Origin: a virus
Virus record (IMG/VR): IMGVR_UViG_3300037400_003528
Span: 1 to 64,000 of that record
Reading direction: 5' to 3' (one strand)
DNA length: 64,000 bases
Of the stretch, positions 43,010 through 43,700 are shown one piece after another (position 1 is the first letter of the stretch; every line of letters begins with the position of its first letter). A model generated the notes under the pieces. That model saw only the letters and a list, made by a program, of their open reading frames with translations. It was not told where the DNA came from and did no database searches. Both the position numbers and the translations under genes were made by a program.

Positions 43010-43700
43010 AAAAAGAAGCGGAAATGGTAACATGACCAAATCCGCTTACATAGGGGAGGCTGTGTACCACGCCTTTAATCCCAAATCTTTATGTCATTGC
43101 CCCCTGTGGGTAGGGTGCTTATATTCTAAATCTCATAAAAGTGCGCCCCCTCAACGCTTAGTGTTAATTTAAATTAAAGTTATTCAGGTGGGTCTCTCAT
43201 AAACTAATTACCTCTTTTTGTTGATTAAAAACATGTCCATCCTACCAGCCTAGGGGTTCCAGACATTCCCCGTATGTTGCCTCACATTTATATACCGCAA
43301 AGTAGGACTTCGGCTTGCGGTGGTGGGTCTTTGTTAGGAAGACTTACTGCGACAACTAGGCGTCTTGGGTTTCTTTCCCTTGCTTCCATCCCTCACCTTA
43401 TGTATTTATTATAGCATCTTTAGGTGACTATGTCAATACCTTTTTTTATTTTTTTGAGGGGCATTCCACCCCTCGCCCGTGGACATCTTTGATTGTAGCG
43501 AAAGTACTTTGGTGAACTTAATCTCCAGTTGCTTCACCCCGAAATGCGGAATGCCCGAGTTTAAAACCGCACACATGATAGTAAAGGAATCGAACCTTTA
43601 GAAAACCATTCTATCTCTTTGATGATTATATTCTATCATCTTTTTTATTATTTGTCAAGGGGTTTTTAAAATTTCTTTTAAAAATTTTAAACCGTATCAT
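43010..43700 (+). ncRNA. candidate long structured ncRNA downstream of cassette C6 (no credible ORF; UUCG and GC-rich palindromes)
   Basis: predicted minus ORFs here are low-complexity; gtaggacttcggcttgcgg and gaggggcattccacccctc hairpins. Confidence 0.3.

Follow-up and report, generated by a model that had tools for sequence, protein, structure and literature searches.

A leftward locus of two promoter-driven RNA units with a conserved, putatively double-pseudoknotted core in a tRNA-rich phage sequence

The 64,000-nucleotide (nt) stretch of viral DNA analyzed here (IMG/VR record IMGVR_UViG_3300037400_003528, positions 1 to 64,000; the window) is AT-rich, phage-like DNA with a GC content of 32.2%. 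Between 36 and 48 kb, small genes are numerous on the minus strand, and a perfect TTGACA-17-TGnTATAAT promoter precedes each of them; the locus described here, at positions 43010-43700, lies among these genes. The 3 kb around it match no GenBank phage when compared with INPHARED by blastn. Two units can be recognized in the locus, both read leftward on the minus strand. Unit A runs from 43658 to 43456 including its promoter, with an RNA of roughly 165 nt, and unit B runs from 43436 to 43008 and comprises a promoter, a 169-nt core, a 185-nt tail, and an intrinsic terminator (Table 1). Both promoters are the same repeated module that serves the flanking minus-strand protein genes. An earlier note on this DNA had proposed a noncoding structured RNA here, and the lack of an open reading frame (ORF), the conservation, and a covarying fold bear this out. 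Our reading, held with moderate confidence, is that the locus consists of two promoter-driven noncoding RNA units and that the core RNA would be stable, made early, and active in trans.

An exact 20-mer from the region retrieves two IMG/VR contigs, one of them a 142-kb contig, L007. Two further conserved blocks, used as patterns, retrieve seven IMG/VR contigs, 48 metagenome loci (46 of them genuine), and a contig of a metagenome-assembled genome (MAG), RUG14326. After removal of duplicates, 45 distinct sequences from IMG/VR, metagenome, and MAG contigs remain, and from the accession prefixes and the "RUG" title their sources look like ruminant-gut projects. The neighboring 121-amino-acid (aa) protein has no relatives in IMG/VR, and an exact look-up of the 149-aa neighbor returns short contigs only. 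Contig L007 is syntenic with the window at ~77% identity; positions 43235-43446 reach 96.7% against flanks of 75-78%, and positions 43014-43235 do not align to it. In the window, model R1 of the core detects a single minus-strand copy (43229-43407; 204 bits). A second, divergent core copy occurs within one homolog-bearing contig (L048 7370-7566, plus strand; 52 bits), and another contig carries a copy of the 5' domain alone (L052 4276-4385, minus strand; 27 bits). The 5' and 3' domains of the core may be separable modules.

The proposed fold divides the core into a 5' domain built on a three-way junction and an 88-nt 3' domain in which consecutive stretches of the 3' tail pair with loops L3 and L4, giving two pseudoknots, PK-A and PK-B. 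In a MAFFT alignment, which we call unbiased, 95.7% of 1,990 cells fall in standard pairs, compared with 40-48%, or about 42%, when the partners are slid. The same alignment contains 208 double-change cells, where shuffles give 57.6±7.1 (0/500), and 18 covarying pairs; a model-fitted alignment gives 96.3% paired, 207 double-change cells, and 20 covarying pairs. The strongest signal is in PK-B, where three pairs change on both sides, in 13-25 sequences each. PK-A is replaced whole in the divergent L048 copy, in which L3 reads GCCGUAUG (7466-7473) and finds a perfect 8-nt partner in CAUACGGC (7559-7566). The earlier note had asked whether related phages keep the structure of the region rather than its sequence; the variable helices differ widely in sequence among relatives and stay paired. 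One of the two hairpins quoted there, gtaggacttcggcttgcgg, is part of hairpin P3 (43295-43320). Folding z-scores of single sequences, from -2.3 to +1.6 over both strands, are unremarkable. ORF absence and single-sequence folding energy are not significant alone; conservation and covariation are the real signal. Purifying selection on the core is strong, and its evolution is compensatory.

The surroundings of the core vary downstream and are constant upstream. In 35 of the 43 distinct contexts, the core is immediately preceded, in sense orientation and at the same distance, by a sigma-70 promoter that has a 17-nt spacer and matches 11 or 12 of 12 consensus positions. A consensus promoter of its own, at a fixed distance and in sense orientation, is the mark of an independent small RNA gene. 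Downstream, at least nine contexts, and five more of a GC-rich type represented by contig L012, show an intrinsic terminator within ~25 nt and then a convergent promoter cassette of the kind described below. About 16 have a Shine-Dalgarno (SD) sequence and a small ORF, the encoded proteins being mutually unrelated (at least eight unrelated small ORFs). The core runs straight into the next promoter in five contexts, and at three loci a tRNA-Tyr gene begins 2 nt past the extracted core. These varied downstream elements exclude a gene-specific leader and place the 3' boundary directly behind the final conserved pairing. A gene-specific cis leader or riboswitch was likewise rejected because no consistent downstream gene family recurs over the 43 contexts. 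No expression platform is seen by inspection (no formal alternative-structure search was made), and the 3' tail is engaged in PK-A and PK-B in all sequences. The core appears to be an autonomous, self-contained, promoter-driven gene module.

The 185-nt tail of unit B behaves differently from the core. Compared by blastn and tblastx with every locus and with the remainder of the window, it has no homolog save in an identical contig (L026), and its folding z-score of +0.5 gives no fold signal. The same slot holds small ORFs, tRNAs, or nothing in relatives, and we take the tail to be a variable slot that is empty or has decayed in this phage. An analogous terminator stands in the matching place in L007.

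Unit A is a second ORF-free unit, comparable in detail with L007. Its promoter, kept in L007, is a member of D1/D2, the repeated promoter families of the minus strand that protein genes also use. The RNA would begin with a tRNA-like minihelix whose acceptor-like stem has five base pairs, GAUAG/CUAUC in the window and GGUAG/CUACC in L007. A connector, AAUGGUUUUCU, contains GG and leads to a T-arm, AAAGG-UUCGAUU-CCUUU, whose stem is also compensatorily changed relative to L007; the minihelix thus shows three compensatory changes spread over two stems. Model R2 finds standalone, minihelix-only relatives in four contigs (L009, L059, L008, and L056), and neither the minihelix nor these relatives are called as tRNAs by ARAGORN or Rfam. 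The branched central domain has four compensatory pairs in its closing helix, zero broken pairs, and several G·U pairs. The second hairpin quoted in the earlier note, gaggggcattccacccctc, stands at the end of unit A (43456-43474) and has one compensatory change in L007. As read from its sequence it is no canonical terminator on either strand, and transcription may run on from unit A into unit B. Between the two units lies an A-rich spacer, possibly an UP element. Over unit A as a whole, the window and L007 share 44 predicted pairs with eight compensatory double changes and none broken.

A 20-mer from unit A finds nothing in IMG/VR, and a pattern of 23 specified bases matches L007 as the only IMG/VR contig; a 75-83% identical copy of 43403-43679 lies elsewhere in L007. 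Other promoter-driven, ORF-free units adjoin the core RNA in three further contigs. Contig L008 has one at 4975-5100 (plus strand), tRNA-like over ~110 nt and with two T-arm motifs; L011 has such units with GGTTCGACTCC motifs on the minus strand downstream of 11318; and the unit at ~5480-5600 of L010 (plus strand) ends in a hairpin followed by an A-run, as unit A does. Phages of this group seem to be equipped with a set of small RNA genes.

Table 1. Coordinates of the two RNA units, their parts, and the adjoining cassette in the window
Feature	Position	Strand	Description
Unit A promoter	43630..43658	-	TTGACA-17-TAGAAT, TG extended -10; 11/12 in promoter scan
Unit A tRNA-like minihelix	43577..43615	-	Acceptor-like stem, connector, T-arm; predicted first 39 nt
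Unit A branched central domain	43476..43559	-	RNAalifold consensus of window and L007
Unit A terminal hairpin	43456..43474	-	GAGGGG-UGGAAUG-CCCCUC, then A-run, without U-tract
A-rich spacer, unit A to unit B promoter	43437..43455	-	Sequence reading
Unit B promoter	43408..43436	-	TTGACA-17-TATAAT, TG extended -10; 12/12 in scan
Core structured RNA	43233..43401	-	~169 nt; 5' end by promoter geometry, 3' end at last pseudoknot pair
Core 5' domain	43322-43397	-	P1 closes three-way junction; P2 encloses P2a, P2b, and conserved GUAAG
Core 3' domain	43233-43320	-	88 nt, near-invariant; P3, P3b, P4, PK-A, PK-B
P3	43295-43320	-	CCGCAAG/CUUUGCGG; 100% paired in 45 sequences, two covarying pairs
P3b	3' domain	-	Weak 4-bp helix, without covariation
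P4	3' domain	-	GGGG/CCCC plus covarying A:U↔G:C pair across a 1-nt bulge
PK-A	3' domain	-	Loop L3 GUCCUAC with tail GUAGGAU; invariant in main family
PK-B	3' domain	-	Loop L4 NNNUC with 3' end GANNN
3' extension (tail)	43048..43232	-	185 nt, non-conserved; 6-codon ORF after SD-like AAGAGG
Intrinsic terminator	43008..43047	-	Hairpin 43016-43047, then C U7 at 43008-43015; sequence reading
Cassette C6	42941..43002	+	Convergent promoter 42941-42969 (11/12 consensus) and GC-rich hairpin 42978-43002

Comparison with Rfam 15 (4227 covariance models) returns only ROOL and tRNAs for the window at the gathering threshold. At E≤10, positions 42650-44000 give chance-level matches only, and the isolated core gives one 12-bit microRNA match on the wrong strand. 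The Rfam scan that the earlier note had recommended therefore leaves 43010-43700 without a matching family at all three stringencies. A literature search by sequence string finds nothing relevant; the RNA may stand unnamed among the ~8,500 candidate structured RNAs from IMG/VR (PMC10690425).

Several known phage RNAs share some properties with the core. Like ROOL and GOLLD, it is phage-borne, noncoding, strongly structured, located near tRNAs, and an orphan. At ~170 nt, it is much shorter than ROOL (~580 nt) and GOLLD (~800 nt), matches neither Rfam model, and unlike them is placed among the early small genes behind a sigma-70 promoter of its own. Both ROOL and GOLLD oligomerize, by cryo-electron microscopy (PMC12286853). 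The phi29 pRNA (RF00044) is like the core in size (~170 nt), in its early phage promoter, and in short loop-mediated pairing that covaries between phages; its model does not match the core at E≤10. Such pRNAs are roughly 170 nt long and pair between molecules through their loops, which gives an oligomeric ring. In the core, a hairpin loop pairs with a 3' tail, in contrast to the loop-to-loop pairing of pRNA, and PK-A and PK-B may form either within one molecule or between molecules. The phages also differ, the one described here being larger than 60 kb with 29 tRNAs and the phi29 type being a 20-kb protein-primed podovirus. The T4 RNAs species 1 and species 2 (rnaC and rnaD) are small, stable RNAs that are orphans in function and are co-transcribed or clustered with tRNAs. 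The core shares this tRNA vicinity, as tRNA-Tyr abuts it in three loci; it is not known to be homologous to them and is set apart by its own promoter and the double-pseudoknot fold.

Unit A is closest in kind to bacterial Y RNAs (YrlA) and to other tRNA-like modules. It shares with them an acceptor-like stem, a T-arm whose loop reads UUCGAUU, and a connector with GG, which could mimic the D-loop/T-loop elbow. A Ro-binding stem formed from the 5' and 3' ends is absent from both unit A and the core, and neither has an Rfam match. No Ro60/rsr gene is adjacent to unit A. The only candidate, 38 kb away, is a 520-aa protein (3978-5540, minus strand) with DUF2828, DUF7788, and von Willebrand factor A (vWA) domains, an architecture that we take to resemble Ro60 (TROVE plus vWA). 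Proteins related to it are present on 48 IMG/VR contigs; among solved structures, including Ro60, none matches it in sequence. A Ro60-partner link was rejected, given that missing match and the presence of the protein on only one of the seven RNA-bearing IMG/VR contigs.

Other assignments were tried and rejected. ARAGORN and Rfam call no tRNA or tmRNA in 43010-43700, and unit A has only the acceptor-like stem and the T-arm. RNase P RNA has a P4 pseudoknot flanked by CR-I and CR-V and a P1 helix that closes the molecule. The resemblance of the core to it is superficial: no RNase P model matches, and P1 of the core closes only the 5' domain. Resemblances to signal recognition particle RNA (GGAAGCA), loop C of 5S rRNA, the 23S GTPase-associated center, the hepatitis delta virus (HDV)-like, twister, and pistol topologies, and TnpB/IscB guide-RNA scaffolds were also weighed and set aside.

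In the reading that we favor, host sigma-70 RNA polymerase would transcribe the core early in infection, and the RNA would accumulate as a stable, compact molecule that acts in trans through its invariant, pre-organized 3' fold. The core would bind or titrate a host or phage protein, in takeover or anti-defense, rather than base-pair with a target. In the window, sites complementary to the conserved single-stranded segments of the core are not enriched. Protein binding is favored because of this and because the invariant nucleotides are mostly locked in internal pairings or short loops. Binding or titration by the core as a decoy is nonetheless a guess, offered tentatively within the broader reading. 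The minihelix of unit A would probably recruit tRNA-processing enzymes or mimic a tRNA.

Several points weigh against this reading. The trans-acting, protein-binding role is guesswork, and the DUF2828/vWA protein accompanies the RNA on only one contig in seven. PK-A does not covary inside the main family, and collection with an exact 20-mer builds part of the 3' domain invariance into the homolog set; an independent 19-mer from another block recovers six of the same seven IMG/VR contigs. The start site, 3' end, and stability of the core are deduced from the DNA, the 185-nt tail is left without explanation, and the evidence for unit A comes from two sequences only. The strand preference given by G·U pairs alone is small, and convergent cassette promoters could make antisense RNA over the locus.

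A rather unlikely alternative is that the core works in cis, as a leader. It could act as a processive antiterminator, as HK022 put and EAR do, with downstream terminators read through, or a 5' stabilizing or processing module that protects downstream tRNAs and mRNAs. The core immediately follows a strong promoter, and downstream of it there is often a terminator with more same-strand genes behind it, or SD-led ORFs or tRNAs ~20-30 nt away. A similar arrangement holds for put and EAR, which stand directly after an early promoter and before terminators and variable genes. Structures at the 5' end stabilize RNA in Gram-positive bacteria, and the hosts are probably Gram-positive, judging from a CW_7 lysin-like gene in the phage. 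The downstream cargo, however, is unrelated between phages, at least 14 contexts offer only a terminator and then a convergent promoter, and no expression platform with alternative pairing is visible. Known antiterminator RNAs also differ in form, put consisting of two simple stem-loops of ~70 nt and EAR having a different pseudoknotted fold; the core is unlike both and has no Rfam match.

Another view is that the core represents a new functional class of phage RNA whose double-pseudoknot domain would be an active device rather than a passive scaffold, and we give this a slim chance. Such a device might form homo-oligomers through intermolecular PK-A and PK-B pairing, as pRNA, ROOL, and GOLLD do, might be an RNA-based anti-defense or takeover effector, or might be a ribozyme. 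That the 3' domain is specifically catalytic or ligand-binding, as a new self-cleaving ribozyme or an orphan aptamer, seems quite improbable. No known ribozyme or riboswitch model matches the isolated core at E≤10, the topology of two loops pairing with one tail differs from the HDV-like, twister, pistol, and hatchet folds, and standalone copies with an immediate terminator leave nothing for processing. The idea draws on the ~88 nt that stay almost invariant while the flanks diverge to ≤75% identity, on the combination of two pseudoknots with conserved unpaired nucleotides, and on a sharp 3' boundary that abuts tRNAs and mRNAs. Conservation of this kind is typical of ribozymes and aptamers.

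The earlier note had placed the transcript on the opposite strand, as one long RNA of ~650 nt started from cassette C6. The C6 promoter is indeed aimed into the region, 43010-43700 has no strong plus-strand terminator, and the helices remain 92.0% paired when read on the plus strand, compared with 95.7% of cells on the minus strand. Two internal minus-strand sigma-70 promoters, 43658→43630 and 43436→43408, argue against a single long plus-strand RNA. Together with a canonical minus-strand terminator adjoining C6 they delimit the units, and nothing in the sequence points to a functional plus-strand transcript. The length does not hold either, since the conserved part of the proposed transcript is only ~170 nt; apart from this and unit A nothing is conserved, including the 185 nt adjoining C6. 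In relatives, the tRNAs and ORFs beside the RNA run in the RNA-sense orientation, and many homologs have no cassette near them. The minus-strand call is made because of the promoters, terminators, and same-strand neighbors, the G·U signal being slight. One long functional plus-strand RNA started at C6 is very improbable.

The cassettes themselves form a family of 12 on the plus strand between 34986 and 47540, including those at 38558, 39998, 41240, 42175, 42941 (C6), 43850, 44721, 45488, and 46261. All 12 have the same layout: after a promoter come a GC hairpin, an A-run, and then a minus-strand terminator in reverse complement. C6 had been singled out as the only cassette that does not abut a gene end. 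It adjoins a minus-strand terminator (hairpin 43016-43047, U-tract 43008-43014) as all the others do, and since this terminator ends a noncoding unit rather than a protein gene, C6 is not exceptional. The other 11, built identically, face protein or tRNA genes, the one at 39998 facing a tRNA-Lys gene; the next cassette was correctly located, with its promoter at 43850-43879. In L007, the C6 ortholog keeps a perfect GC hairpin of wholly different sequence.

Cassette promoters have an extended -10 consensus, and the perfect GC hairpin lies a few nt past the likely start site. Hairpin sequences vary between cassettes and between window and L007 orthologs, and the stems are always perfect. A motif, CTGGCGGT, is common to the promoter spacers, as in the lambda PL/PR operators, and an inverted repeat, TGCACAAAT...ATTTGTGCA, lies ~20-50 nt upstream. 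These features suggest repressor-controlled convergent promoters, either antisense or insulating. C6 may fire an antisense transcript into the region, and such firing would be generic to every cassette, so the region does not give the family a specific function, as had been hoped. The function of the cassettes should be sought in a generic role, antisense transcription or insulation, rather than in one tied to this locus.

The claim that the region holds no credible ORF survives closer inspection. The longest standard ORFs have 67 aa on the plus strand and 47 aa on the minus strand, none with an SD sequence, and reading TAG, TGA, or TAA as sense, a possibility that the earlier note had raised against itself, opens no convincing frame. 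The description of the region as GC-rich is only partly right: its 39.7% exceeds the window average of 32.2% and does not exceed the neighboring genes (41-48%), the 169-nt core alone standing out at 49%. Core homologs show 129 indel runs when aligned to the window, 97 of them with lengths not divisible by three, and the most conserved block carries insertions of 1, 2, 5-6, and 7 nt, mostly of 1-2 nt. No frame is open across all homologs in the core alignment. Indels of 1-2 nt in a conserved domain would shift any reading frame, which argues that the core is noncoding. A decayed or unrecognized protein-coding gene is scarcely credible, even though ORFs of 60-77 aa occupy the slot after the core in relatives and a stop-free frame runs through 178 nt in many core homologs, as those same indels fall in the most conserved block, an SD sequence with a start codon is absent, helix substitutions are compensatory rather than codon-periodic, and the 185-nt tail has no tblastx match.

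The rest of the window is rich in RNA genes. It has 29 tRNA genes on the minus strand (29-30 as called by ARAGORN and Rfam), in a cluster at 6755-19613 and a lone gene at 40129-40202. The cluster includes a tRNA with a CUA anticodon (amber suppressor; 11091-11167), and homing-endonuclease genes of the PD-(D/E)XK and HNH types are scattered among its tRNA genes. Also within it lies a full-length ROOL RNA (14887-15483, minus strand; 279 bits, model positions 1-574), presumably the first ORF-free GC-rich region that the earlier note implies in calling this one the second. The lone gene, a second tRNA-Lys(UUU) on the minus strand, stands isolated among the early small genes, has a cassette of its own, and may be an early-expressed spare against anticodon nucleases. 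Adjoining the cluster, a 262-aa protein (5960-6748, minus strand) has a weak nucleotidyltransferase (NTP_transf_2) match and could be a CCA-adding or RNA-modifying enzyme.

Several other genes and repeats stand out. An 808-aa protein (27634-30060, minus strand) contains major vault protein shoulder, vault repeat, and Band-7 domains; phage major vault proteins have one prior report, from human-gut phages (bioRxiv 10.1101/2023.11.10.566534). Three paralogous small proteins without a Pfam match are encoded on the minus strand of the early region, at 37675-38082 (135 aa), 40247-40666 (139 aa), and 42292-42657 (121 aa). Short inverted repeats bracket the -10 box of leftward promoters at 42698-42723, 43618-43640, 45014-45037, and other sites; as examples such as CCTTATG...CATAAGG and GATGAT...ATCATC illustrate, the symmetry is constant and the sequence variable. 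At 48085-48304 stand five to six tandem 44-nt units, possible iterons or an origin, each with an inverted repeat TAAAGTATGTTAA...TTAACATACTTTA.

The core appears to found a well-supported new RNA family, with no catalogued match in Rfam 15. With 45 sequences, about 20 covarying pairs, and two proposed pseudoknots, this uncatalogued family joins the small set of complex phage-encoded RNAs. A short length, clear boundaries, and a promoter of its own make the core well suited to experiments. Its setting is unusual, as the phages that carry it also have ROOL, ~30 tRNAs, a suppressor tRNA, and a vault-protein homolog. In the less likely reading of the core as an active device, the RNA, expressed early together with the extra tRNA-Lys(UUU) and the tRNA-like minihelices, would form part of an "RNA arsenal" of rumen phages.

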